From NCBI GenBank assembly GCA_011364905.1, contig RDNZ01000025.1, forward strand, positions 1-42,605: DNA of 42,605 nt, in the 5' to 3' direction. The notes beneath the pieces were generated by a model, which searched no databases, was not told where the DNA came from, and worked only from the letters and a program-made list of their open reading frames with translations. Origin of the DNA: Candidatus Thorarchaeota archaeon. GTDB taxonomy: Archaea; Asgardarchaeota; Thorarchaeia; Thorarchaeales; Thorarchaeaceae. Made by a program: the position numbers and the translations under genes. Positions 17,286-32,326 of the stretch are shown one piece after another (position 1 is the first letter of the stretch; every line of letters starts with the position of its first letter).

Positions 17286-18023
17286 GTGGCAGAGTTTCCA
17301 AACCTAGTAGTTGTTCTTGTGGGTCCAGAGAATCCAGGAAATGTTGGATTTGTAGCCAGAGCAATGGCCAACTTCGGATTACATGAGCTAAGACTGGTTG
17401 GGGAAGACAATCGACAAGACCAGTTCGCTCAGATGTTCTCAGTGCATGCCCACAAAATAGTAGATGATGCTGGTGTCTATGAGGATCTCGGCTCCGCTCT
17501 TGTCGGTATTGACCTGGCGTGGGCTGCGACTGCTAGAGCGGGAAGAAATCATAGTGTCACTCGAGCCTTGGTTCCTCTATCTGAGCTACCAGATCCGAAC
17601 TCGCTTGACGGTCGAATCGCACTTGTCTTTGGAAGAGAGAGTACAGGGTTGTTCAATGAGGAGATAGCTCTATGTGATTTGGCGTTCACGATACCTGCAT
17701 CAAAGGAATATCCAAGCCTCAATCTCAGTCATGCCGTGTCCATCGTACTCTATCATCTGTTCTCAAAGTATGCTCCTGTGGAACCCAGACAGCCCTTTGA
17801 AACGAGAGCTGCAACATATCGTGAACGAGAACAGGTGTACAAGTTCTTTGATAATATCGTGGATCAGTTAAACCTGAAAGAGCATAGAGTACCAATTGCC
17901 AAGCAGGTCTTCAGAAATCTTCTGGGTCGAGCTTACATGACTGGAAGAGAGGTGGCTACGCTCACAGGTGTTATACGACGAATAAGTGAGCAAATCAACG
18001 ACAGCAAAAAGCTGGATGATTAG
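17286..18023 (+). CDS. trmJ: TrmJ-family SPOUT tRNA 2'-O-methyltransferase
   Basis: PENPGNVGFVARAMANFG, LVFGRESTGL, YPSLNLSHAV. Confidence 0.92.
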   Translation: MAEFPNLVVVLVGPENPGNVGFVARAMANFGLHELRLVGEDNRQDQFAQMFSVHAHKIVDDAGVYEDLGSALVGIDLAWAATARAGRNHSVTRALVPLSELPDPNSLDGRIALVFGRESTGLFNEEIALCDLAFTIPASKEYPSLNLSHAVSIVLYHLFSKYAPVEPRQPFETRAATYREREQVYKFFDNIVDQLNLKEHRVPIAKQVFRNLLGRAYMTGREVATLTGVIRRISEQINDSKKLDD

Positions 18024-18559
18024 TTTCCATACCCCATCTTTCGCTTCAAATCTGGGTCTATCTTATCAAAGACGATCTTACAGGGTGTCGGGAACTTTGG
18101 AGCTGCCTTCTTCAGTGCTATCATTGCTGGCTTTACATGTCGAGCGTTCACACGGATTGTGATCAGTGGCTGACCAGGCGTGATTCGTGCGGCAATTCCT
18201 ATCACTTTACCCCATGCCCTTCGCATACCATCCTGCACACGGTCAGCACCCGCCCCGGAGATCATCTTGTTCTCACGGAGATAGTGGTACGGTTTCACGC
18301 GGATTCTCAGGTGGTAGTTCAGTCTACCCACTTTCTTTGTCATATCCCTGTTAGAAGCAACACGTGCGGCCTCAAGGGCTTGGTGACGAATCTGGCATCT
18401 CTCTAGGCCAATCAGTGACAGTTCTACGTCAAAGTTTCCACTCGTATTGCCCATGTCAAAGCTCGTTATTCGGCTTGCGGGCTGTCGATGTATGTACCGC
18501 TTACGGACAAAAACTTGACGATCTGCTTCCCGGTAACAGTGGCCTGGACGCTTTCCCAT
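18020..18559 (-). CDS. rpl10e: 50S ribosomal protein uL16 (L10e)
   Basis: MGKRPGHCYR, ALEAARV, RENKMISGAGADRVQDGMRRAWGK. Confidence 0.97.
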   Translation of the reverse strand: MGKRPGHCYREADRQVFVRKRYIHRQPASRITSFDMGNTSGNFDVELSLIGLERCQIRHQALEAARVASNRDMTKKVGRLNYHLRIRVKPYHYLRENKMISGAGADRVQDGMRRAWGKVIGIAARITPGQPLITIRVNARHVKPAMIALKKAAPKFPTPCKIVFDKIDPDLKRKMGYGN

Positions 18560-18630
18560 TATTATTCACCTAGTATGTTTTTTAGCCTAGTAGCTGGCCA
18601 GAACTAGTCGAAACCGCGGGGATTCCAATA

Positions 18631-18646
18631 AAAGGATTATGGACTG
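18631..18646 (+). repeat. Repeat A, copy 1 (AAAGGATTATGGACTG), inside a 28-bp dif-like imperfect palindrome (18620-18647)
   Basis: The same 14-mer occurs at 18989 and 26801, all intergenic and co-oriented. Confidence 0.8.
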
Positions 18647-18647
18647 C

Positions 18648-18830
18648 TCATACCTTCTTTCGTCTTCGAAATTCAATTGCAGCAAAGACCAAAGCTACGA
18701 CTCCACCGGCTAAAAGGCCGTAATCTAGATAATCTAACCCTGTTGGCACACCAGTAGAGAAACCAGCAAGAACAATGAAGACTATACCTATAGCTGCCAA
18801 AACAGCCCAGTCGTTCCCCGTCTTCTGCAT
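18648..18830 (-). CDS. Small 2-TM membrane protein (about 60 aa)
   Basis: ATG at 18830 after GGTGG; two hydrophobic segments and a basic RRRKK tail; lies between repeat A copies 1 and 2. Confidence 0.6.
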   Translation of the reverse strand: MQKTGNDWAVLAAIGIVFIVLAGFSTGVPTGLDYLDYGLLAGGVVALVFAAIEFRRRKKV

Positions 18831-18939
18831 CGCGACCACCAACAAGAGTATGGCTGACGCCGAGATAAGTCCTTAGTTTTCTTGTTTGTTATGTCCTCAG
18901 TTTTTAGAGCGAGTTCAAAACTGTTCTAATCCTGCATGG

Positions 18940-18987
18940 ATGTGTGGGTTCTCGATTATTGGTATCTCAAACAACCGGAGCGCAGGT
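18940..18987 (+). repeat. Repeat B, copy 1 (48 bp), abutting repeat A copy 2
   Basis: 38/48 identical to 24357-24404 by manual alignment, including an exact GTATCTCAAACAACC. Confidence 0.8.
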
Positions 18988-18988
18988 C

Positions 18989-19004
18989 AAAGGATTATGG
19001 ACTG
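18989..19004 (+). repeat. Repeat A, copy 2 (AAAGGATTATGGACTG)
   Basis: 16/16 identical to 18631-18646. Confidence 0.8.
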
Positions 19005-19335
19005 TGCTCTGGAAACGAAGTCAAGAGTGATTTTCTGCGAGAATATAATGTCCTAATCTGTGGTTATTCTGGGAGAGAGTCACACTAGAGGGACCGGCAG
19101 ACTGAACTCTAGAAACACTGAAGATCATCTATATAGAGGAGAGAGATAGCACAAAAACTCGTATGTAAGACGCAATTCAAAAGATATTTTTCTTGATGTA
19201 AAATGATGATAGGCTTTCAAAAAAGGAATGAGTTTGATTTTTTCTTTATTCATGGAGAGGGATAATACTGTGTTTTCTTTCACTTTGTTGCAAAATAGGC
19301 TCTATTTATAGACTTCAATCATTAAGGGTAATAGT

Positions 19336-19902
19336 ATGAGAAAACTGATTGCAGCAATCAATATGACACTTGACGGATTTTGCGACCATACTGCTGGTAT
19401 ACCCGATGAGGAACTACATCAACATTATACGGAACTATTAAGTCAGGGAGACGCAATTCTATATGGCAGGATTACGTATCAACTTATGGAATTTTGGCGA
19501 ACCCTATTGGAGAATCCTTCCGAAGAAAAATCAATGAATGACTTTGCTATTGCTATAGACAAAATTCCGAAAATAGTTTTTTCCCGCACGCTAAAAAATG
19601 TAGATTGGAAGACTGCGAGGGTGGCAAAGCGAGGCATTAAAGAAGAGGTTTTAGAACTCAAGCAACAGCCAGGTAGAGACATTTTAGTTGGCAGTCCGAG
19701 TTTAATTGTCCAGTGCACGAAACTGAAATTAATTGATGAATATCAAATTGTCATTCATCCAATTGTTTTAGGAAACGGATTACCGTTGTTTAAAAACATC
19801 GTGGATAGAGTCGATCTTAAACTCTTAAAGACAAAAACATTTGGTTCTGGTGCAGTAGCTCTTTATTATGAGCCAACAAAGCGGAAAAAATCAAATTTCT
19901 AA
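19336..19902 (+). CDS. Dihydrofolate reductase / RibD C-terminal family protein (bacterial type)
   Basis: MRKLIAAINMTLDGF, ILYGRITY, PKIVFSRTL, VGSPSL, LIDEY..IHPIVLG.G.PLF; visibly AT-rich. Confidence 0.92.
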   Translation: MRKLIAAINMTLDGFCDHTAGIPDEELHQHYTELLSQGDAILYGRITYQLMEFWRTLLENPSEEKSMNDFAIAIDKIPKIVFSRTLKNVDWKTARVAKRGIKEEVLELKQQPGRDILVGSPSLIVQCTKLKLIDEYQIVIHPIVLGNGLPLFKNIVDRVDLKLLKTKTFGSGAVALYYEPTKRKKSNF

Positions 19903-20113
19903 AAATTAGAGAAACATTGGTGCTGCACAGAGATTCGAGATTCTAGAACTGTCAGATAACAAGATGGTATTAGACATAGGAGAGATTTTGATAGAGTCTG
20001 TGGAGGATTTATGGCTAAACATCGACGTATGTCTAGTAAGATGAAAATCTCTAAATCCACTGATATTCTAAGGAATGCATCGATTGAAAGGTCTGACTAG
20101 AGGCTGCGCAGAG

Positions 20114-21064
20114 ATGACGACTTTTACGCAACATGTGGTGTCAAGGAAAGGGAGCAAATTAACTGGTTTGACTCATAGGACACTTCAGGTGAATGTGGGC
20201 AATCGATGTAACCATCTATGTACCCACTGTCATGTTCAAGCCACACCAACAAGCACTGATATAATGCAATGGAGGATAATGGAACACATCCTAGAAGTTG
20301 CTGAGTCGGTCCAACCTGATCTCATTGACATCACAGGAGGGGCACCTGAACTAAATCCCTCCCTTCCGCGCTTTCTCAAAGCATTAGTTACCAAGAAGCA
20401 CAAAGTGCAGGTTCGTACAAATCTCACGGTCCTATTGGAACCGAATCTTAGAAATCTGATGGAAATTTACAGAGACCTTCAGATTCGACTGGTCGGATCA
20501 CTGCCATGCTACATTGAGGCGGATGTGGATCATGTACGGGGAGCTGGTGTATTCAAGAAGAGTCTTCAGGTCTTAAAAGAACTCAACGAACTCGGTTATG
20601 GTATGAGCCCTGATTTAGAACTAGACTTGGTCTTCAATCCAGAGGGCGCTTTTTTACCTCCTGACCAGTCAGAGTTAGAAGCCATTTACAAGGAGAAGCT
20701 GTCATCAGAGTGGGGAGTCTGTTTCAACCATTTGTTAACCATCACGAATATGCCAGTTGGACGATTCAAACAACTATTGGAGAAGGAACTACAGGCCGAA
20801 CAATATCAGGAACTCCTTGAAGGTTCATTCAACCCTGACACATTGAACAGTTTGATGTGTAGACATCAGATATGTGTTGGATGGGACGGACTGATTTATG
20901 ATTGCGACTTCAACTTCGCCCTCAAACTTCCTGTAAGGGGTACACCACAGCACATCGATCAGTTCGATGTGGATTCTCACAAGTCTCGCAATATCGTGAC
21001 TGGATCTCATTGTTTTGGTTGTACTGCCGGGAGAGGGTCCTCTTGCTCAGGAGCCCTTGAGTAG
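20114..21064 (+). CDS. arsS: ArsS-family (arsenosugar biosynthesis) radical SAM protein, DUF3641
   Basis: TLQVNVGNRCNHLCTHCHV, DITGGAPELNP, SLPCY, TNMPVGRF, LMCR, YDCDFN, HCFGCTAGRGSSCSGAL. Confidence 0.9.
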   Translation: MTTFTQHVVSRKGSKLTGLTHRTLQVNVGNRCNHLCTHCHVQATPTSTDIMQWRIMEHILEVAESVQPDLIDITGGAPELNPSLPRFLKALVTKKHKVQVRTNLTVLLEPNLRNLMEIYRDLQIRLVGSLPCYIEADVDHVRGAGVFKKSLQVLKELNELGYGMSPDLELDLVFNPEGAFLPPDQSELEAIYKEKLSSEWGVCFNHLLTITNMPVGRFKQLLEKELQAEQYQELLEGSFNPDTLNSLMCRHQICVGWDGLIYDCDFNFALKLPVRGTPQHIDQFDVDSHKSRNIVTGSHCFGCTAGRGSSCSGALE

Positions 21065-21091
21065 AGATTAAGAGTAAAAGAGGGTGAGTAC

Positions 21092-21796
21092 ATGGCGAGC
21101 GGCACGAATGCATTCAGTCCTGGGATATTCATAATGATGAAACATCCTGAGGTGGGTAAGGTCAAGATGCGTCTCGCAAAATCATTGGGGGAAAAAGATG
21201 GGACTGGCCTATACCGGGCGTTTATTCAGGATACCATCACAAAGGTACAATCTCTAGATGTTCCCTATCGCATTGCGGTATATCCACCAGAATCGCAAGA
21301 GATGATTATTCAATGGCTTGGACAAGTATCTCAAGTATTCCCCCAACTGGGTATGAATCTCGGAGAACGTCTGCAGAATGGGTTCGGAATGATGTTTGAA
21401 AAGGGATATCAACAGGTAATCGCTCTCGCAAGTGATAGTCCGGATTTACCAAATGAAATTCTGATGGAGGCTGTTTCTGGTCTCCAGACACACAATGCGG
21501 TGATTGGACCAGCATCTGATGGTGGATATTACTTGATTGGATTTTCGCGTGATTTTTTCATCCCTGAGGCATTCGAGGGAGTATCCTGGAGTACAGAAAC
21601 TGTGTTTAAAGAAACCATGTCACGTATCGGATCAAGAACAAGTCAGGTATATGTGTTACCAGAATGGGCTGACATCGACACCAATGAGGATCTTCGAGAG
21701 TTCTACAAGAGAAATCGAGTACAACCATCAAGGGCTCTACACACAATGAACTATCTCAATAGTCATCCTAAGCTTCTGCAGAGCCTCTTATCATGA
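21092..21796 (+). CDS. TIGR04282/DUF2064-family (CofC-like) glycosyltransferase
   Basis: KHPEVGKVKMRL, Q..NLGERL, SDSPDL, IGPASDGGYYLIG, WST..V, DIDT..DL. Confidence 0.9.
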   Translation: MASGTNAFSPGIFIMMKHPEVGKVKMRLAKSLGEKDGTGLYRAFIQDTITKVQSLDVPYRIAVYPPESQEMIIQWLGQVSQVFPQLGMNLGERLQNGFGMMFEKGYQQVIALASDSPDLPNEILMEAVSGLQTHNAVIGPASDGGYYLIGFSRDFFIPEAFEGVSWSTETVFKETMSRIGSRTSQVYVLPEWADIDTNEDLREFYKRNRVQPSRALHTMNYLNSHPKLLQSLLS

Positions 21797-21827
21797 TTGG
21801 TTTCAGGCCACCAATCTATTGATTGAT

Positions 21828-22585
21828 CTAAGGGATAATACCATGAAGAGTGATTGGGAGGAGTACAAAGCCTAGAACAATTGTAATCCAAAGATACCGA
21901 AAACTGAGTTTTGGCCAAGGTCTATTCCGTAGGTTATACCCAAGCTTGAATTGTTCGTAACCAAAAAGAACCGCTAGAATGGTCAGGTTGATGTCGAAAA
22001 CATAAGTCACAAGATCATAACGCTCGATTGGGAGATTGATCAGGAAACCAATACTCTCTCCTAGACTTGTACCGATAGTATCAAGCTGGGATTCAAAAGG
22101 CAACCGACCCACGAAAAATACGAGCCCCATGTGCGCAACAAGTATCCAACAGACAATAAGTGAGTGCAGGACCACCCAATTCTGAGCGCGTTTCGACAGT
22201 CGTTTGTGAAGAAGGGAGGAATTAGTTCTACGCTCAAATAATACGACAAGTGTCCACAAGATAAGAATAGACAGTGCAACCAGTGTCATTATAGTGGTGT
22301 TAAACGCTCCACACTCGCTGTGAGAGGCATCAATGTCGCCTGGACCAGTGCAATGACTCTGCTGACCACAGTCTTCTGATAGAACGCAGCGCCTATTGTT
22401 ATGAATATCAAGGAATAGACCCAATTATGAGACCATCTTGGATCTTCGATGAAGACCTCAATAGTATAAGGCATTACCCAAAAAATGAGATACATGATAC
22501 CCATCAACAGGAGACCAAGGCCCGGACCAACTTGATATTTGTTGGGGCTTGTAGAGTCAGTGATTGGTTTAGATTCATCTGTCAA
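21828..22585 (-). pseudogene. Multi-pass membrane protein (about 251 aa if repaired) split by a 2-bp frameshift near 22311
   Basis: Track ORFs 22289..22585 and 21828..22424 join as ...LMPLTAS|GAFNTTIMTLVAL... when the extra GT in AGT-GT-GGA is removed. Confidence 0.75.
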
Positions 22586-22685
22586 ATCACAATCCTCCCA
22601 CTAATATGGACGAAGCTTACCCAACGATAAAGAAGCAATATGTCTATCTATTCATGGTTCTCAAGTTCTGTAGAAATAATGCAGT

Positions 22686-23399
22686 GTGGTGTACGTATTG
22701 ACTAGCCCCCCCATAATCTCAGTGGTCACCCCTGTGCATTCAACAAATCACAAGCTCCCAGAAATCAGGAGGGCGTTATACTCGGCAAAAAGACCAGTAC
22801 AGTTGATTGTGGTACTCAATAACCCAAATCTTGTAGACCAGATTAGTCCTCAGAAATCCAGCGAGTCAGTTGTTATATGTTCTCGAAAAGGACGTGGATT
22901 TGCATTCCTTAGAGGAATCGAGTGTGTTACAGGTGCAATCACCGTATTACTACATTCTGATACAATTCCACCTCTTGGATGGGATGATGCAATTCTTACT
23001 GCTTTAAGAAACCCACAGATAGTCGGGGGAGGGTTTTCACCCACTTATGACACGCCTAAACCATACTTTAATCCGTTTACTTGGGTGGTAAAGCTTTGGT
23101 TTCGAATCTCAGGAGAACTATACGGTGATGGCGCCATGTTCATTCGCTCCAATATTCTAAGACGCTGTCGCTCAGTGCTTGAGGTTCCACTTTTCGAAGA
23201 CTTGCGATTGGCACAGTGTATGCACAAGTATGGTCAAGTCGTATTACTCGAGAAGAAGGTCAAGACAAGTGCTGAAAGTTTTCAGAGGCAGGGTGTCGTG
23301 CAGCATATTGGCAAGATATTGCTTTGTAGAGTGTGGTATGCTTTGGGAGGGTCTCCATTTCAGATTTACAATGTCTATTATTCTACCTTGCACCGCTGA
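22686..23399 (+). CDS. GT2-family glycosyltransferase, TIGR04283-like
   Basis: ISVVTP, GRG, LLHSDT (canonical FLHADT), GGGF, YGDGAMF, PLFED, TSA..F. Confidence 0.82.
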   Translation: MVYVLTSPPIISVVTPVHSTNHKLPEIRRALYSAKRPVQLIVVLNNPNLVDQISPQKSSESVVICSRKGRGFAFLRGIECVTGAITVLLHSDTIPPLGWDDAILTALRNPQIVGGGFSPTYDTPKPYFNPFTWVVKLWFRISGELYGDGAMFIRSNILRRCRSVLEVPLFEDLRLAQCMHKYGQVVLLEKKVKTSAESFQRQGVVQHIGKILLCRVWYALGGSPFQIYNVYYSTLHR

Positions 23400-23498
23400 A
23401 CACAGATTCTGTAGGCTTCCCAATCTATATCCTCATCTTCTCGCTCAACATCTAGATACTCATTTCCGTTGAGTAGCCATGCAACTGCCCCTACGAGA

Positions 23499-23514
23499 AT
23501 GTGTGGCTTCTCAA
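23499..23514 (+). repeat. Repeat B, partial copy
   Basis: ATGTGTGGCTTCTC is 13/14 identical to 18940-18953; intergenic, same orientation. Confidence 0.5.
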
Positions 23515-23534
23515 ATAGTCATTCTCTATCGTGG

Positions 23535-24266
23535 TTATTTGACTCTAGGTTTCCTAGAGAAGTACACTCCCACTAAAACGATGAGAATTATGGAGCTATA
23601 TGCTACTAATAAGATGCTATTGATAGGCAAAGGTGCATTGATTCTATCAATATGAGTGCCACTACCGGTTGTTGGATTTACAAAAGTGGTTCTTTCCAAC
23701 TGGAGTGACAACAAAACTCCATCAGTCTTTGAGAAGACATATCTTCGAAACTCTTCCAACTCAGTGGAATTCCTACTAGTCTGAAAACCCCACTTAGTTT
23801 CCTCATCAATTATGCTAATCTCGTCATAGTATATAGAGTATAGTGAAATGAAAACCGTTTCTAGCAAGTCCCAGTTTCCAATTGGAACCGCAAATCCAAA
23901 ATAGCCAGGACCGGGTGGTGGTACTAGACTCCCATTATAGAAATAGGCCTTTTCTTTAGCGAGGGGGAACAGTGTCAAAGGGTCTGTGATGGTATAGTTG
24001 TCATTTGTAACGATATAATACCTGAAGCTTAGCGATCCAACAATGCTTTCATTCCTATACCGAGTGTCTGTTTCTTGGAAGTAGAATTTCTTCCCGGTAT
24101 CAAATCCCCATGTGAGCCCTTGATTTTGTGAATCGGCCAAGATTGGTATTGAAAGTATGAATAGGAACCACAGAGCGACTAACTGCTTGTTTCTAGAAGC
24201 CTGAGAATCAAACTTTCTACCAAATACTAGGTTTTGGCTGATTTTGATCAACTCCTTCTCCTTCAA
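23535..24266 (-). CDS. Hypothetical secreted protein with C-terminal membrane anchor
   Basis: N-terminal hydrophobic signal, beta-rich middle, C-terminal TM followed by RKPRVK. Confidence 0.7.
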   Translation of the reverse strand: MKEKELIKISQNLVFGRKFDSQASRNKQLVALWFLFILSIPILADSQNQGLTWGFDTGKKFYFQETDTRYRNESIVGSLSFRYYIVTNDNYTITDPLTLFPLAKEKAYFYNGSLVPPPGPGYFGFAVPIGNWDLLETVFISLYSIYYDEISIIDEETKWGFQTSRNSTELEEFRRYVFSKTDGVLLSLQLERTTFVNPTTGSGTHIDRINAPLPINSILLVAYSSIILIVLVGVYFSRKPRVK

Positions 24267-24356
24267 ACCACGCTTGCCCTATCTTTGTACAATGAGATTG
24301 TTGCTTTCGATGACTAAAAACTTAATCCTTCTTAGAATCTTTTCATTCCCATGCGA

Positions 24357-24404
24357 ATGTGTGACATCTCAATGATTAGTATCTCAAACAACCTGAGTAC
24401 TGGT
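24357..24404 (+). repeat. Repeat B, copy 2
   Basis: 38/48 identical to 18940-18987. Confidence 0.8.
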
Positions 24405-24514
24405 TCACCCTGCCTCCGCCGCTGAGTGTTCAATATGAAGACGAAGATCAATCCTTCGCAGTACAGCGACTCGACACTAGTATGTATTCCGTCAGAGTGT
24501 CTTCTATTCTTGCT

Positions 24515-25204
24515 CTAGTCTATCACTCTCGGTTTGTCTATCACGTAGAATCCTATTGTCACGACAGTTCCAACGATACATTCTCCTTTGAAAATGATAG
24601 GGAATAGAGCTGGATTCACTTGCGTTTGCGTCTCATTAAAACGAATCCGGAAATCCAATTCCAAATTGAATCTCGTGTCGTTACCTCTCTCTTCGACCAG
24701 AGTCAGAGAGCAGTTCCATATAATCCGTAATGAATATTCAATTGGGTAAGTCCTGTTTTGCTGAAAGGTTTCATTCAAACCAGGGGTGCCCCATCCCCTA
24801 AAAGGGGGAGGTTGATTCAGTGTGACATTCCAATCCTTACTAGAAGATTTAGAGGACAAAGAGGCTCTTTCGTTTTCTGATACGCTATACAAAGACTGAG
24901 AAACGATATAGGTTGAATATGTTCCAAAATTGAGCAGTCCTTTATTCAAAATCAGTTCTGTTCTTATCTCTACATAGATTCTAGTAGTATTGTGAGGCTC
25001 ATCTACATCAACGTCATGTGAGATATTGAAACTCGTGGGGATTTCTATACTGAACATGGTATCAATATATGAAACATTGCCACTCATTTCCCAAGATACA
25101 GGTGGTGGAGGATTGTTTGCCCATATTGAGACCAGTGCGGTTGTGAGTACGATCAGGAGTGTAAGTGCTAAAGCTCTGCTTGCTCGGCGTAACCGCACAT
25201 CCAT
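24515..25204 (-). CDS. Hypothetical membrane protein with extracellular domain rich in N-x-S/T sequons
   Basis: N- and C-terminal hydrophobic helices; start uncertain (25204-25270). Confidence 0.65.
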   Translation of the reverse strand: MDVRLRRASRALALTLLIVLTTALVSIWANNPPPPVSWEMSGNVSYIDTMFSIEIPTSFNISHDVDVDEPHNTTRIYVEIRTELILNKGLLNFGTYSTYIVSQSLYSVSENERASLSSKSSSKDWNVTLNQPPPFRGWGTPGLNETFQQNRTYPIEYSLRIIWNCSLTLVEERGNDTRFNLELDFRIRFNETQTQVNPALFPIIFKGECIVGTVVTIGFYVIDKPRVID

Positions 25205-25309
25205 GTTAACACCATTCTTGCTGAACGGTTTGTCTATGTCCATTGCACTTACGCATTTCGTAACCGTCACATTTCATAAGGAATGGTGCTCTGACATAAC
25301 TGTGGTTGC

Positions 25310-25492
25310 ATGACGCAGGTGAGGTTGGGATCAGTCGTACTTCTGATTCTTGGTCTGATGGTTATTGTAGCCTCTGTCACGTACATCCCAGGTCCTGCAC
25401 CAGCACTACCTCTTGGAATGTTTGGGACAGGAGTGATACTGATTGTTATAGCTTTATCCACAATCCGATTCAGAGATCAAAACGGTGTATAG
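25310..25492 (+). CDS. Small 2-TM membrane protein
   Basis: Two hydrophobic helices; fills the gap between larger genes. Confidence 0.55.
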   Translation: MTQVRLGSVVLLILGLMVIVASVTYIPGPAPALPLGMFGTGVILIVIALSTIRFRDQNGV

Positions 25493-25504
25493 CTAGTGAG
25501 CAAA

Positions 25505-26722
25505 TCAGTCTGTCTTTGGTACTCGCAAAGCATCATTCTTTGAAAATTTAGCAGTGAGCATAAAGAGAAGAACACCTAGCAAGTTCATTATTGCCTTTAC
25601 GTAGAAGGGCACATTCTCTCCAAGAAGCAGAGCAAATGAGATCAAGGCAGGCCCAACCATGCTAGCGAGAGAAACAGACATTGAGTAGACCCCCATTATT
25701 GATGCGCGTCTTTCTTTTGGATACCTCTCAGCAACAGCGAGAGGTGGCACTGATATGTCTACCATGTCTAGACCAGCCCAGATTGAGTAGAGGACCAGTA
25801 TTCCCAGGGATGTTGTGCCAAAGGGGAAAAGAACGACCGTGACTGCAAGCAATGTCCAACCTCCAAAGATTGCGCTTTGAGTACCAATACGATCCACCAA
25901 ACCACCTGATGCTAGTGCAGAAACTGCAATCACCAAAGTTGACACAGAGATCATTACTCCATAGAGGTCAATATTAGAACGACCAACAAAGATTGGTACA
26001 TACCAAGAGAGACCGCTACTTGATATTCCATCAAGCGCAAAGGCCGCTATTAAGAGAAGAAGAAACCAATCATTACGAAGCTGAGGTGGCGGAGATATAT
26101 CATCAGATATGTTGACAGAATCAGAGTGGGTTTCTTGGAGTCCGACGCTAAACAAGACAAGCACAGAAACGAGACCAAACAGTCCGAGAGTAATTCCTAG
26201 CCAGAATTGGTTGTTGAGATAAAGCGAGGTGCCGATCAGCACCAAAACTGCAGGAGGGATTGATGGAAGGACCCTTGTACTGACCATATAGGAGAGACCT
26301 CTTCGTTTTTCTGGACTGCTCTCAACAAGCAACATCGATGATGCTGGTCTTAAGATGCCACTACCAGCCGCCATCCACATATAGCCGGCGGAGGAAAGGA
26401 CCCCTGCTAGAAATAGGGAGGTGGGGACAAAGACTAGTGAAGAAAGGATTACGAAAATGCCACTTGTGTACATCACATAGCCAATTCCAATGATTGGTTT
26501 TCTTCCGAATCTGTCAGCAGCTCGTCCACCAAATAGTGATGCGATTGCTCGAGAAACCGCTATCGCAGTGAAGATAATCCCAATGAAAAATGAGGAAATT
26601 CCAACATCAACAAAGTAGTAAGGCATGAACATAATCCACAAGGAGTTAGCAGATGTTGTCACAGTGTTTCCTATGGACATAACAAAGACATTTCTTCGAA
26701 TGTCTCTGTGTTCCAGTTCCAA
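25505..26722 (-). CDS. MFS transporter
   Basis: GGRAADRFGRK (motif A), GGLVDRIG, PKERRASIMG; about 12 TM segments. Confidence 0.92.
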   Translation of the reverse strand: MELEHRDIRRNVFVMSIGNTVTTSANSLWIMFMPYYFVDVGISSFFIGIIFTAIAVSRAIASLFGGRAADRFGRKPIIGIGYVMYTSGIFVILSSLVFVPTSLFLAGVLSSAGYMWMAAGSGILRPASSMLLVESSPEKRRGLSYMVSTRVLPSIPPAVLVLIGTSLYLNNQFWLGITLGLFGLVSVLVLFSVGLQETHSDSVNISDDISPPPQLRNDWFLLLLIAAFALDGISSSGLSWYVPIFVGRSNIDLYGVMISVSTLVIAVSALASGGLVDRIGTQSAIFGGWTLLAVTVVLFPFGTTSLGILVLYSIWAGLDMVDISVPPLAVAERYPKERRASIMGVYSMSVSLASMVGPALISFALLLGENVPFYVKAIMNLLGVLLFMLTAKFSKNDALRVPKTD

Positions 26723-26800
26723 ATGTATCGCTCCCTCTACACGATGTGAGAAAAGAACAGGCTTTTCCGATATATGTTTCTGATGAGCTTTAAGCAGTTG

Positions 26801-26814
26801 AAAGGATTATGGAC
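26801..26814 (+). repeat. Repeat A, copy 3 (AAAGGATTATGGAC, followed by CGGC)
   Basis: 14/14 identical to copies 1 and 2. Confidence 0.75.
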
Positions 26815-26905
26815 CGGCTATTTGCAATCGCTGAAATCCTTGTAGAAAGAGAATCAGTATGGGACTGGAAGAACTTATCATGCTACTTTTCGAATAAGAA
26901 ACAAG

Positions 26906-27490
26906 ATGAAGAGGATAAAGGTAGGGCTATTGATTATCGTTGGTCTCATTATCACTTCTATGACAGTATATGATATGCTTCCATATCGGGAGAGGAATTA
27001 TATTACACACAGTGGGTCTGCCACGCGGTCTTATGACTTGGTCTTCAACTCGACGACACAGTACATAAGTATCGATGAAGAGTCATTTATCGACATTCAG
27101 GATCCCTTCCCGAACTCAATAAACAATCTCACACTATCATCAAGCATCGATGTGTCTTATGCCATATCCAGTCATAACTGGACTGCCACATTGTATTCCC
27201 CCCAATTCCTTGGATATGTCAATGCCAATACAACACATGTCAACCATTACACGGACTATCGGGAGCGCGAATGGTTCATGTTTTACACTATGAACATGAC
27301 TGACTTCTCCTGTGTCTTCTCGTATACCGCCAACTACACAGTGGAAATGATCTACAGCCGCCCACCAAAGACCTATGCATGGGCAACTCTCTTTTCATTC
27401 CTTGATGCGGAAGGAGTCGTGCTAGTGGGAGTAGTCATCTTTGCATCAGTGTTAATCTATGTAGGCACTAGGTTGTTGACTGATTCGTAA
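26906..27490 (+). CDS. Hypothetical membrane-anchored protein
   Basis: N-terminal signal/TM, several N-glycosylation sequons, C-terminal TM. Confidence 0.7.
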   Translation: MKRIKVGLLIIVGLIITSMTVYDMLPYRERNYITHSGSATRSYDLVFNSTTQYISIDEESFIDIQDPFPNSINNLTLSSSIDVSYAISSHNWTATLYSPQFLGYVNANTTHVNHYTDYREREWFMFYTMNMTDFSCVFSYTANYTVEMIYSRPPKTYAWATLFSFLDAEGVVLVGVVIFASVLIYVGTRLLTDS

Positions 27491-27517
27491 ACAATGCATT
27501 ACGAAGTTTCCACTTGT

Positions 27518-28744
27518 TCACCAATTGTACGGCGATTGCCCCTGGCTTGTTGGTCCTCTTGCCCTGCAGACTAGTACTAACGCAATGATGATGACAGCTC
27601 CACCGCCTATTGTCAGAATCAGGACAATGTCAAATGTGGGCGGTGGTCCAGTTGTCGTGGTATTGGTCGGCAAAGTTGTGGTCGGTGGAGAAGTCTGGGT
27701 TGTAGATTCCATAGATCCCCAGACACCATGACTTGGTTCGGAGGGTATCCACTTGCGAATATACACATTATCCAAAGCTAGATGTCGTGTGTTCTGAGTC
27801 CCTCCTCCGGGTCGAAAAGCGGTTACGTTTGTAGGTGTTTCACCGGAGGCTTGTGACACAAAATTAACCTCTCCCATGTAGAGTCCATCCTTCCAACCTC
27901 TGAGTTTACCACTACTCATATCAAAACCAATCTGAATTGTGTACCATGTGTTGTAAGCGAGTGCGCTATTCTGAGGCCAATTATGGTAGGACCCATCATA
28001 GTACAGTACATTCGTCGACCCGAAGGTGCATGGATAACAGGACCCTGTATCAGCACTAATACCTATCGGAAATGTGTTAAAATTATCAAATGTGCGAGCG
28101 TCGAGGCTAATCAGAAAACTATCAGGTTGGTTCATTCCATGACCCAAATCACGCGAGCTCTGAACTGTACTGCCAGCATTGTAAGCACCATATGCTACCT
28201 CGGTTTTATGAGTAGTGCTAATCTCCCAATCACCTGAATAATCCCAATTATCAAACGTACCGCTCTCGAAGTCGTCAAAGAATAGAAATGTCGTAGCACC
28301 ATCACTAGCACTAGTTGCTTCTGAATTTCCGTAATAGACATAGATATCCTGGTTTGTGTTTAGGTTATCTGCAATCTCAACCCAAAAGACTGCGTTATCA
28401 GAAGACACGCTTGATTCCATCCAATAACCAAGCATGGTTGTGCCATCATCATCTGTAAAGCGAATATCCCCAAAATCTGATCTACAGAGAGTATCACAGT
28501 ACATGTCAGATTCACTATCAGTTCCGGATCCAAAGTGAACTGTCAATTTGATTGGATAGTTAATTCCTGCGCCAGCATAGCCCTCTATGGTATGTGATTT
28601 CCGTACTTCCCAGTCACTTAGCCAGCCTTGAACTGAACTAAGTGTAGTTTCTTCAGTTGGTACAATTGTAGGAACCGTACTATGGCTAAGAAGAATTGGC
28701 GATACAAATAGCAAGAAAATAACAATCTTCGTAGGAAATCTCAT
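27518..28744 (-). CDS. DUF2341-domain cell-surface protein with ConA/LamG-like region, Thr/Pro linker and C-terminal TM
   Basis: WLSDWEVRKSHTI, DFGDIRFTDDDGTT.L.YW.E, FWV, IYVYYGN, TFLFFDDFE; TTQTSPPTTTLPTNTTTT linker. Confidence 0.85.
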   Translation of the reverse strand: MRFPTKIVIFLLFVSPILLSHSTVPTIVPTEETTLSSVQGWLSDWEVRKSHTIEGYAGAGINYPIKLTVHFGSGTDSESDMYCDTLCRSDFGDIRFTDDDGTTMLGYWMESSVSSDNAVFWVEIADNLNTNQDIYVYYGNSEATSASDGATTFLFFDDFESGTFDNWDYSGDWEISTTHKTEVAYGAYNAGSTVQSSRDLGHGMNQPDSFLISLDARTFDNFNTFPIGISADTGSCYPCTFGSTNVLYYDGSYHNWPQNSALAYNTWYTIQIGFDMSSGKLRGWKDGLYMGEVNFVSQASGETPTNVTAFRPGGGTQNTRHLALDNVYIRKWIPSEPSHGVWGSMESTTQTSPPTTTLPTNTTTTGPPPTFDIVLILTIGGGAVIIIALVLVCRARGPTSQGQSPYNW

Positions 28745-28910
28745 ACAAAACCCCCAACGGTCACATTTGTATCGAACATGATATAAACAACTTATGGAAA
28801 ATTCTCAGTTGCACAGTTTGTATCAGTCCAATAAAGGATGCATTGATAACCTCTCAAGTATTGTTATCAGAGTAGGGATGTAGCAAGACAAAAAAAAGGA
28901 GTATAGTATA

Positions 28911-29129
28911 ATGGGAAAGAAAGGAGTTGCAGCTGGTGTTCTGACCTTCTTAGTGGGTCTGCTTCTTGTCATCGATGACCTTCACGACTTCGTGGCGGTT
29001 CCAGATTTTCTTCATTTCCTACCGGACTTTGATCCCTATTTTGTATTCGGATTCCAGTTGCATCATCTCTACATAGGTGCCATAATCCTCCTGATTGGAC
29101 TGGCAATCGCCATCAAGTATGATGAGTAA
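28911..29129 (+). CDS. Small 2-TM membrane protein with LHHLY motif
   Basis: AGGAG SD, ATG start, two hydrophobic helices. Confidence 0.7.
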   Translation: MGKKGVAAGVLTFLVGLLLVIDDLHDFVAVPDFLHFLPDFDPYFVFGFQLHHLYIGAIILLIGLAIAIKYDE

Positions 29130-29140
29130 GAGGTCTGATC

Positions 29141-29545
29141 CTACTCTTTACTCTTGACTCGAGGCTCGGCTACCACCTGTATCGGGTTGCCCTCAGGGTC
29201 CTTCAGATTAAAGTAGGAGACCATGTCAGGTACGTCATTTATGTCTGATGTGTCGACTCCCTTTCTCTCAAGGTACGTCTTGCATGCATCGAGATCCTCG
29301 ACATCCAGTGTAAGGGTTCCCGAACCCTGCCGGTGTTCACCCTCGCGTATCAGGTTGATGCCCAGTCTGGCACCTTCGGCTGGAAGCGCAAACTCAGCCC
29401 ATCCTACCTCTGCTCCACCATCCCACATGATCTCAAAACCCAGTGTTTCTGAATAGAACTTCTTGGCACGGTCAAAGTCCTTCACCTGGTACTGAAAGTA
29501 GACAGATCCTTTCTTGTAAGGCATTGGCCATTTCTTATCGCCCAT
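29141..29545 (-). CDS. VOC/glyoxalase family protein
   Basis: VKDFDRAKKFYSETLGF, VEDLDA...L..KGV, FNLKDPEGNPIQV. Confidence 0.9.
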   Translation of the reverse strand: MGDKKWPMPYKKGSVYFQYQVKDFDRAKKFYSETLGFEIMWDGGAEVGWAEFALPAEGARLGINLIREGEHRQGSGTLTLDVEDLDACKTYLERKGVDTSDINDVPDMVSYFNLKDPEGNPIQVVAEPRVKSKE

Positions 29546-29653
29546 GACAATCACAATTCTCCATTGCTGAAGGTTATATTTAACTATTGTGAACTCAGAT
29601 TCATTGGTCAGAGTATCTTTATGAGCGTTCTTGTATATATGTGTGTGAGTTTG

Positions 29654-32326
29654 ATGGGAGCTCTCGTTGAGGTGTTAAATCGCAGAAGGCTAGCAATAGC
29701 TCTTGTGGTAGCTATATTCCTAACAGCAGCTGTTCCTATAGATTCTCCAAAGGTTTCCAATCGCATGAATACAGTCGCAGAACCAAAAAGTCTGCAACCC
29801 ATGCAAATAGCAGAGTATGACTCACTTCTCAATTTCTCATCATTTTTTGGAGGAAGCGGAGATGAGTACTACATCTCATCCGACTCTGATGCAGCAGGAA
29901 ACATCTATGTTGCTGGAACAACGGACTCGAGAGACTTTGTGCTTGTCAATCCATTGGATGATGCATTTGAAGGCCGCGGTCCCGAGGGATTTCTGACAAA
30001 GATCAGTCCAAATGGGACAATAGTATACTCGACATATATTGGCGGTACAGGATATGACGAGGTCAAAGACATCTTCGTGGATGATGCTGGGTTTGTATAT
30101 CTAACAGGAGGCACGGATTCAGCTGACTTTCCAACAGTAAATGCTGCAGACGACACCTTGAATGAAGGAGACTGCTTTGTCTGCAAGATCAACCAGGCAG
30201 GTGATGCGTTCATCTATTCCACATTCATTGGGGGCTCCTCAGGTGAAAGCGGTAACGCAATCTGGGTCAACGAGAATGGTGAGGCATATGTAGTTGGAGA
30301 AACAAGCTCGACTAACTTTCCAACGAGAAATCCTTTCGATGGCACTCTAGGTGGGTATAGAGATGGGTTTGTGTCAAAACTGAGTAGGACCGGGAATAAA
30401 CTTCTATACTCAACATTGGTTGGAGGGGGACAGGAGGAGGAAGTGGCGGACATAACGGTCGATGCGGAGGGGGCTATGTATGTGACAGGTACCACATGGT
30501 CAATGGACTTTCCAACAGTGAATGCTAACGACGAGATTAAGGATGGGGCGTATGACTGCTTTGTGCTCAAGATTAATCCCTCTGGCACTACGCTGAATTA
30601 TTCGACCTTCCTTGGCGGCGATGATGTGGAATTCGCACAAGCTATCGGCGTGGACTCTCTAGGACGAGCATATGTACTCGGACATACTACATCGTTTGAC
30701 TTTCCAACTAGACGACCACTACAGCGCAGCTATTCGGGGGGTGTAGATGGTTTCTTGACAGTGTTCAATCCAGAGGGTAGTTCGCTGAACTACTCGACAT
30801 TTTTCGGAAACTCCGGTTCTGAGTGGCCACAAGACATGGTTGTCAACGGTATAGGTAGTGTATATGTATGCGGTTCCAGTAACAGCCTATCGGCTATGAT
30901 TAGAAACTCATACGATTCAAGCTTTAACGGCGGAGCAGATGCATTTGTGTTTCGAATGGACATTGACCGAGGAATTGTACTCCTAGGTTCGTACCTGGGA
31001 GGTTCCTTGCTAGATGAGGCCACGTCAATATCGGTCGGTTACGATGGCACCATGAACGTTGTTGGTTGGACTTGGTCGAACAATTTCCCACTGAGAAATC
31101 CAGTTGACTCCACCTACAATCCCGGTGGTGCCGATGGATATGATATCTTCATTTCTGTAATACTTGACACAACTGATTATGACCTGGATGGAATCCGAGA
31201 CTCTGAAGAGGTTCTACTTGGAACTGACAAGTTCAACCCAGACACTGATTTCGATCTCTTGAGTGACTATCTTGAGGTCTACCAGTTGGGCACCAATCCT
31301 CTTACAAACTGCACCTATGGAAATGGCACCCTGGATGGAGACCTCGATCATGATGGTGATAAACTGACAAATGTCGAGGAACTCTATCAGTATGGCACGA
31401 ATCTTCTGGCCAAGGACACTGACTTAGACCTCTTAGATGACGGGTTTGAAGTCCATACGGTGGGCTCATTGCCAACAGAGTATGACAGTGATTCTGATAC
31501 CCTGTCGGACTGGGAGGAGTACATGGTTTATCATACTGATTGCATGTCGGAGGACACCGATCAGGATCTGATGACTGACAACTATGAGGTCTACTGTGGG
31601 CTGAATCCGCTTATTGACGATGCGAGTGGCGACCTTGACGGAGATTCGTTAAGCAACCTTGAGGAGTTTGAGCTAGGTACTCTTGCAAACAGTACAGACT
31701 CCGATTCAGACCAAATGCCCGACTTCTGGGAGGTCTCCTACTCCCTCAATCCTGTGGTCGATGACTCCAATTTGGACAAGGATCATGACGATCTGCCCAA
31801 TCTGTTGGAGTATGAACTGGGATGCAGTCCGATAGACAGCGACTGCGATAATGACACATTAACTGACGGTTTTGAGGCGCTTGTTCTTGGTACAGATCCA
31901 CTGAATCCGGATTCAGACATGGACACTATGCCAGATCAATGGGAGGTCTATTATGGATTGAATCCATTGCAGGACGACTCGCGTTTTGATGCCGACCTTG
32001 ATGGATTATCAAACCTGAGAGAATATGAGCTGGGTACCAGACCAGACATGACTGATACTGACTTGGACTCGTATAGTGATGCGTGGGAGGTGCTAAATGG
32101 CTTTGACCCAATCAACCCCTATGTCTCATTTTACCAATCTATCTACTCGAAGATTCCGGCTATCCTCACAATAATAGCGATGCCATTGACCATTCCCGGC
32201 TTTTACCTCATTGGCAAACATATGAGAAGAAGAAACGAGCTGGAGAGGAAGAAAGAGAGCTCTAGGGAGATAGACGACCTCCTGAGATCTATGCATGAAC
32301 TGTCTGAGTCTAAAGACGAGGATTAA
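29654..32326 (+). CDS. Cell-surface protein: SBBP beta-propeller repeats, tandem Ca-binding DxDxD (TSP3-like) repeats and C-terminal TM
   Basis: About 7 repeats of YSTxxGG..D.....VD..G..YV.G.T.S.DFP, then many D.D.D.L.D..E...GT.P units, a TM and a charged cytoplasmic tail. Confidence 0.88.
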   Translation: MGALVEVLNRRRLAIALVVAIFLTAAVPIDSPKVSNRMNTVAEPKSLQPMQIAEYDSLLNFSSFFGGSGDEYYISSDSDAAGNIYVAGTTDSRDFVLVNPLDDAFEGRGPEGFLTKISPNGTIVYSTYIGGTGYDEVKDIFVDDAGFVYLTGGTDSADFPTVNAADDTLNEGDCFVCKINQAGDAFIYSTFIGGSSGESGNAIWVNENGEAYVVGETSSTNFPTRNPFDGTLGGYRDGFVSKLSRTGNKLLYSTLVGGGQEEEVADITVDAEGAMYVTGTTWSMDFPTVNANDEIKDGAYDCFVLKINPSGTTLNYSTFLGGDDVEFAQAIGVDSLGRAYVLGHTTSFDFPTRRPLQRSYSGGVDGFLTVFNPEGSSLNYSTFFGNSGSEWPQDMVVNGIGSVYVCGSSNSLSAMIRNSYDSSFNGGADAFVFRMDIDRGIVLLGSYLGGSLLDEATSISVGYDGTMNVVGWTWSNNFPLRNPVDSTYNPGGADGYDIFISVILDTTDYDLDGIRDSEEVLLGTDKFNPDTDFDLLSDYLEVYQLGTNPLTNCTYGNGTLDGDLDHDGDKLTNVEELYQYGTNLLAKDTDLDLLDDGFEVHTVGSLPTEYDSDSDTLSDWEEYMVYHTDCMSEDTDQDLMTDNYEVYCGLNPLIDDASGDLDGDSLSNLEEFELGTLANSTDSDSDQMPDFWEVSYSLNPVVDDSNLDKDHDDLPNLLEYELGCSPIDSDCDNDTLTDGFEALVLGTDPLNPDSDMDTMPDQWEVYYGLNPLQDDSRFDADLDGLSNLREYELGTRPDMTDTDLDSYSDAWEVLNGFDPINPYVSFYQSIYSKIPAILTIIAMPLTIPGFYLIGKHMRRRNELERKKESSREIDDLLRSMHELSESKDED

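Follow-up and report, generated by a model that had tools for sequence, protein, structure and literature searches.

In a genus of Thorarchaeota (Asgard archaea), a 17-base sequence at the edge of the inferred rpl10e promoter recurs, always in one orientation, at joints between swappable accessory-gene modules. Hence, it looks like the junction site of a gene-cassette array. Its identification as a XerA/dif site is not supported, and no recombinase could be found. A preliminary description of this 42,605-nt stretch of a Candidatus Thorarchaeota archaeon (the window) had noted a triplicated 14-mer and read it as a dif-like site. We found that the observation holds. However, its interpretation is only partly supported: the motif does mark joints of an accessory region in which unrelated gene modules have accumulated and been reshuffled, but neither XerA nor a tRNA origin, the two sources proposed, withstood analysis.

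The repeated core beside rpl10e

The sequence AAAGGATTATGGAC occurs three times on the plus strand of the window, at 18631-18644, 18989-19002 and 26801-26814, and all three copies are intergenic. None of 100 dinucleotide shuffles gave three matches, even when two mismatches were allowed. The whole 3.08-Mb assembly of this genome (G000) has no further exact copy and a single 1-mismatch copy elsewhere. In the genus, exact copies lie almost only on the contigs carrying rpl10e. The motif clusters in one variable locus and is not scattered upstream of core genes, an outcome that had been set beforehand as a test of the preliminary reading.

Copy 1 lies between the start of rpl10e (18559) and the stop of a 65-aa ORF (18648). 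It reads GGATTCCAATA-AAAGGA-TTATGGACTGC, that is, an 11-6-11 layout with ATAA...TTAT and 7/11 complementarity between the arms, as previously described. This copy overlaps an inferred rpl10e promoter (18620-18647, minus strand), with a TATA-like CTTTTATT at 18627-18634 preceded by CCATAATCC. Promoter function is inferred from conservation: GAATAAAAGGATTATGG lies 65-75 nt upstream of the rpl10e ATG in all Thorarchaeota lineages examined, including those in which the deoxyhypusine synthase gene (DHS) abuts rpl10e with nothing inserted. On the other hand, only AATAAAAGGATTATGG is conserved across lineages. The left arm varies among relatives (for example ...GTTTGAATA), its complementarity falls to about 3/11 in some genus members, and it is absent from internal copies. 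Conservation of internal copies drops sharply outside 17 nt, the core followed by TGT. The last two bases of internal cores match the rpl10e copy of the same lineage (AC, CC or AG).

Layout of the variable island

Comparison with 27 genomes of the same genus revealed a hypervariable island of 1.5 to 10 kb. In 26 of the 27, left-flank homology ends at 18642-18650, exactly at copy 1, and right-flank homology starts at 28817-28911, in most genomes at 28825-28839. Across 27 island pieces, all 36 cores are co-oriented. A second island-specific, non-coding repeat of about 139 nt, which we call U, also marks junctions, contains a covarying hairpin, and is co-oriented in 34 of 34 copies. U is restricted to this island in G000 and lies mostly on rpl10e-island contigs in the genus. 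Many MAG contigs end within about 100 nt of the core, which fits population-level polymorphism at the site.

The left anchor is rpl10e itself (ribosomal protein L10e/L16; 18020-18559, minus strand; Pfam Ribosomal_L16, E 2e-29), which is syntenic in all genus members. Core copy 1, followed by TGC (18631-18647), is the anchor-side, attB/attL-like junction. Next comes a 65-aa two-helix membrane ORF (18648-18845, minus strand) whose stop lies 3 nt from the core. The same ORF abuts a core in four other genus genomes (G018, G039, G033 and G038) with different left neighbours. The 3' half of a U repeat (U positions 83-139; 18930-18988, plus strand; nhmmer E 9e-17) is directly followed by tc and core copy 2, an internal junction with TGT (18989-19005). 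The same U-tc-core arrangement occurs in G039, and U-11 nt-core in G002. A 5' half of U (positions 2-77) follows at 19032-19107 (plus strand; nhmmer E 4e-13). In many relatives, the full U follows the first core by 17-60 nt.

The cargo at 19336-23399 (plus strand) comprises, according to Pfam, a RibD_C reductase (19336-19902), an arsenosugar-type ArsS radical-SAM protein (20075-21064), a DUF2064 protein (21092-21796), a 198-aa membrane ORF (21828-22424, minus strand) and a GT2 (22686-23399). The arsS block is present in the island of G004 in a different order, and elsewhere in G017 and G013. At 23535-25270 (minus strand) lie two orphan secreted or membrane-anchored proteins of 243 and 251 aa without a Pfam hit, with a U 3' half between them (24344-24403, plus strand; nhmmer E 1e-13). 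The MFS transporter module (25505-26800, minus strand; Pfam MFS_1; gene start at 26722) ends at core copy 3 (26801-26814), which is followed by CGG. This module is 81-83% identical in G018, G004 and G038, always ends at a core, and has three different right neighbours. Beyond it, at 26906-28744, are a 194-aa membrane ORF (plus strand), with a weak homologue in the island of G013, and a 408-aa DUF2341 protein (minus strand).

The right boundary of the genus-level variable region lies at 28824-28851. Here the window carries CAGTCCAATAAAGGAT (28824-28839), taken in the preliminary description for a lone left arm. An alignment of seven right boundaries showed that the window-specific CAGTCCAATAAAG is followed by a conserved block, GATGCATTGATAACC (28837-28851), and that the former is not conserved there in relatives, so it is not a shared arm. 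This boundary has no core. Further right is older or separately inserted material (28911-32326): a 72-aa membrane gene (28911-29129, plus strand), a glyoxalase (29141-29554, minus strand) and a 920-aa SBBP/TSP3 surface protein unique to this genome (29564-32326, plus strand). None of these lies between DHS and rpl10e in other Thorarchaeota lineages. DHS (32323-33255, minus strand; Pfam DS, E 2e-90) is the probable original upstream neighbour of rpl10e, as its stop lies 94-165 nt from the rpl10e start in L068, L074, L075, L080, L089, L113, L126 and L131, loci from such lineages.

Modules are joined to different neighbours exactly at the core, as expected for a site-specific junction. The small membrane ORF follows a core preceded by the rpl10e flank (G000), by U (G039) or by the end of an ABC permease (G018, G038). 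The ABC cassette follows a core preceded by three different left flanks (G039, G005, G008), and the MFS-upstream flank precedes a core followed by three different right flanks (G000, G018, G004). Module order also differs, being MFS-core-arsS in G004 and arsS...MFS-core in G000. However, not every joint has a core, as some have only U and some have neither. In addition, shared cassettes are about as diverged (70-83%) as the flanking core genes (75-82%), so that there is no sign of recent transfer between these species.

Interpretation and rival explanations

We favor, with only slightly better than even confidence, an integrase-less, polar gene-cassette array, or additive genomic island, built at a single chromosomal hot spot, the distal edge of the rpl10e promoter. 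In this view, the original arrangement was probably DHS, a spacer of about 100-160 nt and rpl10e, and modules of one to several accessory genes have been inserted, lost and reordered between the two genes. Every exchange that can be traced has its breakpoint inside the 17-base core, which corresponds to half of the TATA box, the BRE-like segment and five further bases of the rpl10e promoter. Each incoming module would therefore have to carry, or regenerate, the same bases so that the essential gene keeps its promoter, and a second, co-oriented core would be left at the far end of the module. Internal cores would not be promoters themselves, because the AT-rich TATA half is missing. U, which often lies directly before or after a core, probably belongs to the junction apparatus or to module punctuation. 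Our data demonstrate the anatomy, the polarity, the locus specificity and the combinatorial joining at the core, whereas the action in trans of a dedicated site-specific recombinase is inferred, and that enzyme was not identified.

The searches for this enzyme were negative. PF00589 was not found in G000, in 20 of 28 genus genomes (including genomes 92-97% complete) or in the complete Thorarchaeota chromosome CP070761, although the control search detected it in all 14 reference genomes, four archaea among them. PF16795 was found in none of the 28 genomes, and PF00239, PF01548, PF01797 and PF01867 were absent from G000. None of 113 island ORFs falls in a recombinase family among the 25 most common Pfam families, and no integrase, transposase or Cas1 was found in the islands. 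A phmmer search with the sporadic integrases of the genus found no relative among 3953 ORFs of island-bearing loci. Likewise, no free or viral attP-bearing element was found in IMG/VR or in a metagenome scan.

These negative results leave room for a possible, though less likely, scenario without a dedicated recombinase, in which ordinary homologous or microhomology-mediated recombination and repair between U repeats and cores, and through the conserved flanks, builds and shuffles the array, perhaps following breaks near the rpl10e promoter. The repeats would then be by-products that act as recombination substrates. U copies are similar enough for homologous recombination (about 75-90% over 60-139 nt), many are truncated at various points, the cassettes are as old as the species splits, and longer copies of the rpl10e upstream region (70-110 nt) occur inside the G005 and G004 arrays. 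However, 17 nt is very short for homologous recombination, yet breakpoints are exact at the core in many independent combinations. Internal cores are nearly perfect although they have no obvious function of their own, the strict co-orientation of cores and U copies is expected for a polar site-specific process, and homologous recombination alone does not create the first internal copy. It is unlikely that the internal copies are regulatory duplicates of the BRE/TATA edge, acting as promoter or transcription-factor sites for cassette genes, in a merely hypervariable region. Copy 1 does overlap a promoter-like element conserved across Thorarchaeota, and on the minus strand each window copy lies 72-145 nt upstream of a minus-strand gene. 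Nevertheless, internal copies lack the AT-rich TATA half (on the minus strand the bases after CCTTT are GACCTG, CAACTG, GTGGG and so on), neighbouring genes have either orientation, the motif is absent from promoters elsewhere in the genome, and it coincides with homology breakpoints rather than gene starts.

The two readings of the preliminary description are very unlikely. Accretion of modules by XerA acting in trans at a dif-like site, as in IMEX or pdif systems, drew on the dyad of copy 1 and on co-oriented repeats of which only the anchor copy is complete. This reading is largely refuted by the missing recombinase, by the loss of the dyad in the genus, and by the fixed, promoter-like distance of the sequence from rpl10e in all lineages, even at empty sites. 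A dif site is a conserved 28-bp sequence, with two inverted 11-bp arms around a 6-bp spacer, present once per chromosome in the replication terminus region, where the skew inverts. No GC-skew inversion was seen across the 42.6-kb window, in a genome assembled in 95 contigs, which leaves its position relative to an origin unresolved. The alternative of tRNA-derived att scars rested on the minus strand of copy 3, which reads GCCGGTCCA. ARAGORN found no tRNA or tRNA fragment in the window, and none of the 23 tRNA genes in the assembly, which is 81% complete, ends with or is followed by anything like the core. Moreover, the source of the repeat is identified as the rpl10e promoter edge.

A more speculative possibility, which we regard as tentative, is that Thorarchaeota possess a gene-capture system of their own. 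A so-far unrecognised recombinase, or an enzyme co-opted from another role, would join modules at copies of an anchor's terminal sequence, here a promoter edge, and the structured, strand-specific U would serve as the cassette-side recognition element, an analogue of attC that is unrelated to it. If similar arrays hold at other anchors, this would be a lineage-wide mechanism of accessory-genome assembly in the archaeal relatives of eukaryotes.

Comparison with known systems

As in Xer/dif-exploiting elements (IMEX, pdif modules) and archaeal XerA/dif, a complete site lies at the anchor, partial co-oriented copies flank the added modules, and recombination would act in trans. However, no conserved Xer-type recombinase was found in the genus, the dyad symmetry is not conserved, and the site is an inferred promoter element. 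Casposon-type insertion involves a Cas1 casposase and terminal inverted repeats inside 14-15 bp target-site duplications, but PF01867 was not found in G000 and the sequences inside the cores show no inverted repeats. Integrated Asgard mobile elements such as Yucahu-i of Atabeyarchaeia, with an 11-bp att (PMC11529989), are also bounded by a short direct repeat in an Asgard chromosome. Those elements encode their own tyrosine integrase and exist as circles, whereas here we found only cargo modules, in arrays, with no integrase and no circular form detected.

The resemblance to integrons, including archaeal integrons and clusters of attC sites lacking an integrase (CALINs) (Ghaly et al., 2022, PMC9668308), lies in a polar array of promoter-proximal cassettes, a fixed, attI-like proximal site combined with repeated, co-oriented, partly hairpin-forming junction elements, and cassettes reordered between relatives. 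Like CALINs, the array can stand without an adjacent integrase. No IntI gene lies next to the proximal site, whose neighbours are rpl10e, a SpoU methylase and a GTPase on the left, and the 72-aa membrane gene and glyoxalase on the right. The junction repeats lack the R''/R' (RYYYAAC...GTTRRRY) signature of canonical attC sites: a regular-expression test on the island found one palindromic hit, not at a joint, against a mean of 0.5 and a maximum of 6 in shuffles, and U has no such boxes. In addition, the shared core is 17 nt and identical to the proximal site, and many modules carry several genes in both orientations.

Finally, additive flexible genomic islands, with tandem accretion of integrative elements at one att site, include tRNA-anchored islands and the tycheposon islands of Prochlorococcus (bioRxiv 10.1101/2020.12.28.424599). 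In common with these, the Thorarchaeota array has one conserved anchor, content that varies between relatives, co-oriented direct repeats of the anchor's end at module joints, and a cargo of transporters, surface proteins and small metabolic operons. It differs in that no integrase lies in any of about 115 island-bearing loci examined, the anchor is a promoter edge of a ribosomal-protein gene instead of a tRNA 3' end, and a second structured repeat, U, punctuates the array.

A junction core at the edge of the inferred rpl10e promoter

The 14-mer AAAGGATTATGGAC occurs exactly three times in the window, at 18631, 18989 and 26801, always on the + strand and always in intergenic DNA. In a set of 100 dinucleotide-preserving shuffles, none gave three matches even when two mismatches were allowed. 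Hence, the observation of the preliminary description, three co-oriented intergenic copies of one motif, is confirmed. The window is a complete contig (C21) of a 3.08-Mb, 81%-complete assembly, which contains no other exact copy of the motif and one copy with a single mismatch on another contig. Shorter sub-words of the core do not belong to any wider family and are not enriched in a common context elsewhere, and the possibility of a genome-wide regulatory motif was therefore rejected. No tRNA was found in the window.

The surrounding genes are archaeal and code for SRP54, a DRG-type GTPase, a SpoU methylase, L10e and deoxyhypusine synthase (DHS). Between rpl10e (18020-18559, minus strand) and a conserved 72-aa membrane gene (28911-29129) lie unrelated accessory genes, comprising a 65-aa membrane ORF, a RibD_C reductase, an arsenosugar-type ArsS/DUF2064/GT2 cluster, orphan secreted proteins, an MFS transporter and a DUF2341 protein. 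The arsenosugar-type cluster (20075-23399) includes an ArsS radical SAM protein with DUF3641, a DUF2064/TIGR04282-like protein and GT2. In the relatives (G numbers denote genomes, G000 being the genome under study, and L numbers denote loci), the same block lies at another position in the island of G004, and on other contigs in G017 and G013.

BLAST comparison of the region with 27 other species of the genus revealed that homology on the rpl10e side ends at window positions 18642-18650 in 26 of them, which is exactly the end of copy 1. Homology resumes at 28817-28911, most often at 28835-28839, and the DNA in between is 1.5 to about 10 kb long and differs from species to species. The element at 28824, which the preliminary description took for a lone left arm of the site, sits at this right boundary. 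However, the bases to the left of the conserved block GATGCATTGATAACC differ in every relative, so it is not a shared site, and no conserved core was found at the right boundary. Extra copies of the 72-aa membrane gene that marks this boundary occur inside some islands (L020:4601-4810 in G011, and the island pieces of G034 and G038_C12), and the right flank may therefore itself be a duplicated module. Beyond it, a gene coding for a 920-aa SBBP beta-propeller/TSP3-repeat surface protein (29564-32326, + strand) lies between the glyoxalase gene and DHS. This gene is absent from every relative compared, and in G005 the glyoxalase gene is followed directly by DHS. No direct repeats were found at its borders.

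To examine the junctions, we collected 27 island pieces from the genus, oriented them alike and listed every core with at most 2 mismatches. All 36 copies are in the same orientation, and clustering of the 40 nt on each side shows combinatorial joining. The small membrane ORF always begins 3 nt after a core, which is preceded by the rpl10e flank in this genome, by a second repeat (U) in G039, and by the end of an ABC permease gene in G018 and G038. Likewise, the ABC-transporter cassette (259 + 548 aa) follows a core that is preceded by three different sequences (G039, G005, G008), whereas the upstream region of the MFS gene precedes a core that is followed by three different sequences (G000, G018, G004). 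Module order also differs, being MFS-core-arsS in G004 and arsS...MFS-core here. In the internal copies, information content is high only over AAAGGATTATGGAC+TGT and falls to background on both sides. Nevertheless, some junctions carry much more of the anchor than 17 nt, as longer internal copies of the rpl10e upstream region, core included (70-110 nt, 73-79% identical), lie inside the arrays of two relatives (L017:10933-11001 in G005 and L024:1416-1524 on contig C18 of G004). Outside the genus, other Thorarchaeota lineages have two-copy arrays whose internal copy carries that lineage's own version of the last two bases, CC or AG instead of AC. Many MAG contigs end within about 100 nt of the core, which is what strain-level polymorphism at the site would cause.

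In several other Thorarchaeota lineages, including the complete chromosome CP070761, DHS lies directly upstream of rpl10e with a spacer of 94-165 nt and nothing inserted. These empty sites still contain GAATAAAAGGATTATGGC at 65-75 nt before the rpl10e start codon. Read on the rpl10e strand this is CCATAATCC-TTTTATTC, that is, an AT-rich TATA-like box with a BRE-like segment upstream, at a sensible distance from a leader with a GGTGA Shine-Dalgarno. Copy 1 is therefore best read as the distal edge of the rpl10e promoter, an inference that rests on conservation and position alone, and in which transcription would be expected to start about 25 nt downstream of CTTTTATT. In this view, all DNA from 18646 to 32322 in the window has probably been inserted into an originally short DHS-rpl10e spacer. 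Moreover, any exchange within the core would have to restore the promoter of an essential gene, which would explain why the anchor copy is invariant. The internal copies lack the AT-rich half of the box and are therefore not promoters. Several Thorarchaeota MAGs contain two rpl10e loci (L059 and L114 in SMTZ1-45, L057 and L116 in Yap200.bin7.15), about 87-89% and 74-75% identical to the query, which are either true paralogous loci or two populations binned together. The second type has no core within 2 mismatches.

A second, non-coding repeat at module joints

The stretch just left of copy 2 (18930-18988) recurs at 24344-24403, and in relatives it is part of a unit of about 139 nt that we call U (for example L027:772-910). 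We found 34 full or partial copies in the 27 island pieces, all co-oriented with the core. In G000, U occurs only in this island, and in the genus it lies mostly on rpl10e-island contigs, with a few copies on small unplaced contigs. U is non-coding, a reading as a small protein gene being rejected since no frame is open across copies, and no Rfam family matched at E <= 1 in the island or in the islands of four relatives. In an alignment of U copies (A2), a 24-pair imperfect hairpin (columns 40-116) is paired in 84.8% of cells, against 35-48% when partners are slid. Twelve pairs show compensatory changes, and G-U pairs favour the + strand. However, the structure was derived from these same sequences, which biases the test, and single-sequence folding energies are no better than those of shuffles, with z-scores from -1.6 to +0.5. 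The hairpin is thus plausible but not proven, and it is supported by the covariation evidence only.

U sits at module joints whatever the orientation of the neighbouring genes. It is followed by + ORF starts in about 12 cases and by the stop ends of minus-strand ORFs in about 11, a lack of consistent relation that argues against a fixed-distance promoter or leader. U directly precedes a core in G000, G039 and G002, and follows the first core by 17-60 nt in at least ten genomes. In the window, the two halves of U are permuted around copy 2, in the order 3' half, core, 5' half. On the metagenome contig VAPA010480422.1 (L144:839-2066), the most conserved 35 nt of U overlaps the last codons and stop (TGA within GATGATCGG) of a gene coding for a 401-aa membrane-anchored protein. 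This segment is followed by the same promoter-like segment (CCTTCCAAYATTTTATCA) and 147-aa ORF seen after U in G005 and G033. U may have originated from the 3' end of a gene.

Searches for a recombinase or a mobile source

No candidate enzyme for the joining of modules was found. Tyrosine recombinases (PF00589) were not found in G000 or in 20 of 28 genus genomes, several of them 92-97% complete, and the hits in the other eight lie mostly on short contigs. The complete chromosome CP070761 has none and CP070658 has one. SSV-type integrases (PF16795) are absent from all 28 genomes. Casposon, serine recombinase, IS110 and IS200/605 readings were rejected, as Cas1, serine recombinase, IS110 and IS200/605 TnpA are absent from G000. 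Among 113 island ORFs of at least 100 aa, the 25 most common Pfam families are all cargo, including LVIVD and beta-propeller surface proteins, ABC and MFS transporters, ICMT, adenosine deaminase, OYE and ArsS. The integrase contigs of the genus (L044-L055) carry no core or U, and a phmmer search with their ORFs found no relative among 3953 ORFs of about 115 island-bearing loci. One of these contigs, of 2.7 kb, carries three tyrosine recombinase genes in tandem (G035:C116:394-2727; L044, L052), an arrangement that resembles a recombinase-in-trio and is unconnected to the island. The genome also encodes a eukaryote-type topoisomerase IB (PF01028, E 1e-62, 713-aa frame; contig C67, 3521-4249, L155). 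The left edge of identity of the internal cores (window 18631-18635) is AAGG, which reads ...TCCTT| on the minus strand, the cleavage pentamer of poxvirus-type TopIB, although this is probably a coincidence.

A viral or plasmid attP was also sought. The single IMG/VR hit to a 20-mer of U (L133) has no U and no core, and the nine 17-mer hits are consistent with chance. A scan of metagenome contigs returned mainly the same island in related populations. Two loci, L144 and L145, carry a U-like segment without the anchor genes in the stretch retrieved, but no free element carrying U plus core was detected in either scan.

Interpretation and relation to described systems

The interpretation offered in the preliminary description is partly supported. 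Its general idea, a recombination-driven accretion of unrelated genes at a repeated site, fits our data well, but its specific mechanism, a dif-like site used by XerA in trans, does not. Without a conserved Xer-type recombinase, without a conserved dyad, and with the site explained as a promoter, the dif analogy is a coincidence of ATAA...TTAT. Its alternative, that the copies are tRNA-derived att scars, is excluded as far as an 81%-complete assembly allows. Canonical attC sites are absent.

Two mechanisms can be weighed against each other. We favour, with moderate confidence, an unidentified recombinase acting in trans, because of the exact 17-nt breakpoints, the perfect polarity and the preservation of the internal cores. 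Repair or homologous recombination between the repeats is a possible but less likely alternative, favoured by the missing enzyme, the ragged U copies and the age of the cassettes, which are as diverged as the core genes. The comparisons establish that the feature is real, specific and unusual, whereas the promoter function of copy 1 is inferred from conservation and position, and a dedicated recombinase is inferred from the pattern of the junctions.

Asgard archaea are studied for how their gene repertoires grew, yet little is known about how they acquire and organise accessory genes. The locus behaves like an integron or an additive island. If a dedicated enzyme exists, it is probably of an undescribed kind and could be found by following this site. 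If none exists, the locus shows how ordinary repair can build integron-like arrays. In practice, the core is a breakpoint for MAG assembly and a marker for strain-level variation in Thorarchaeota populations.

We found no published description of such arrays in Thorarchaeota in the literature searched. Additive and integron-like cassette arrays are already known; what distinguishes this one is its anchor on the promoter edge of an essential ribosomal-protein gene, its own pair of junction repeats, and the absence of a recognisable recombinase in genomes that largely lack tyrosine recombinases altogether. The closest published systems are archaeal integrons and CALINs (PMC9668308), tycheposon-type additive islands (10.1101/2020.12.28.424599) and integrase-bearing Asgard elements with short att sites (PMC11529989).
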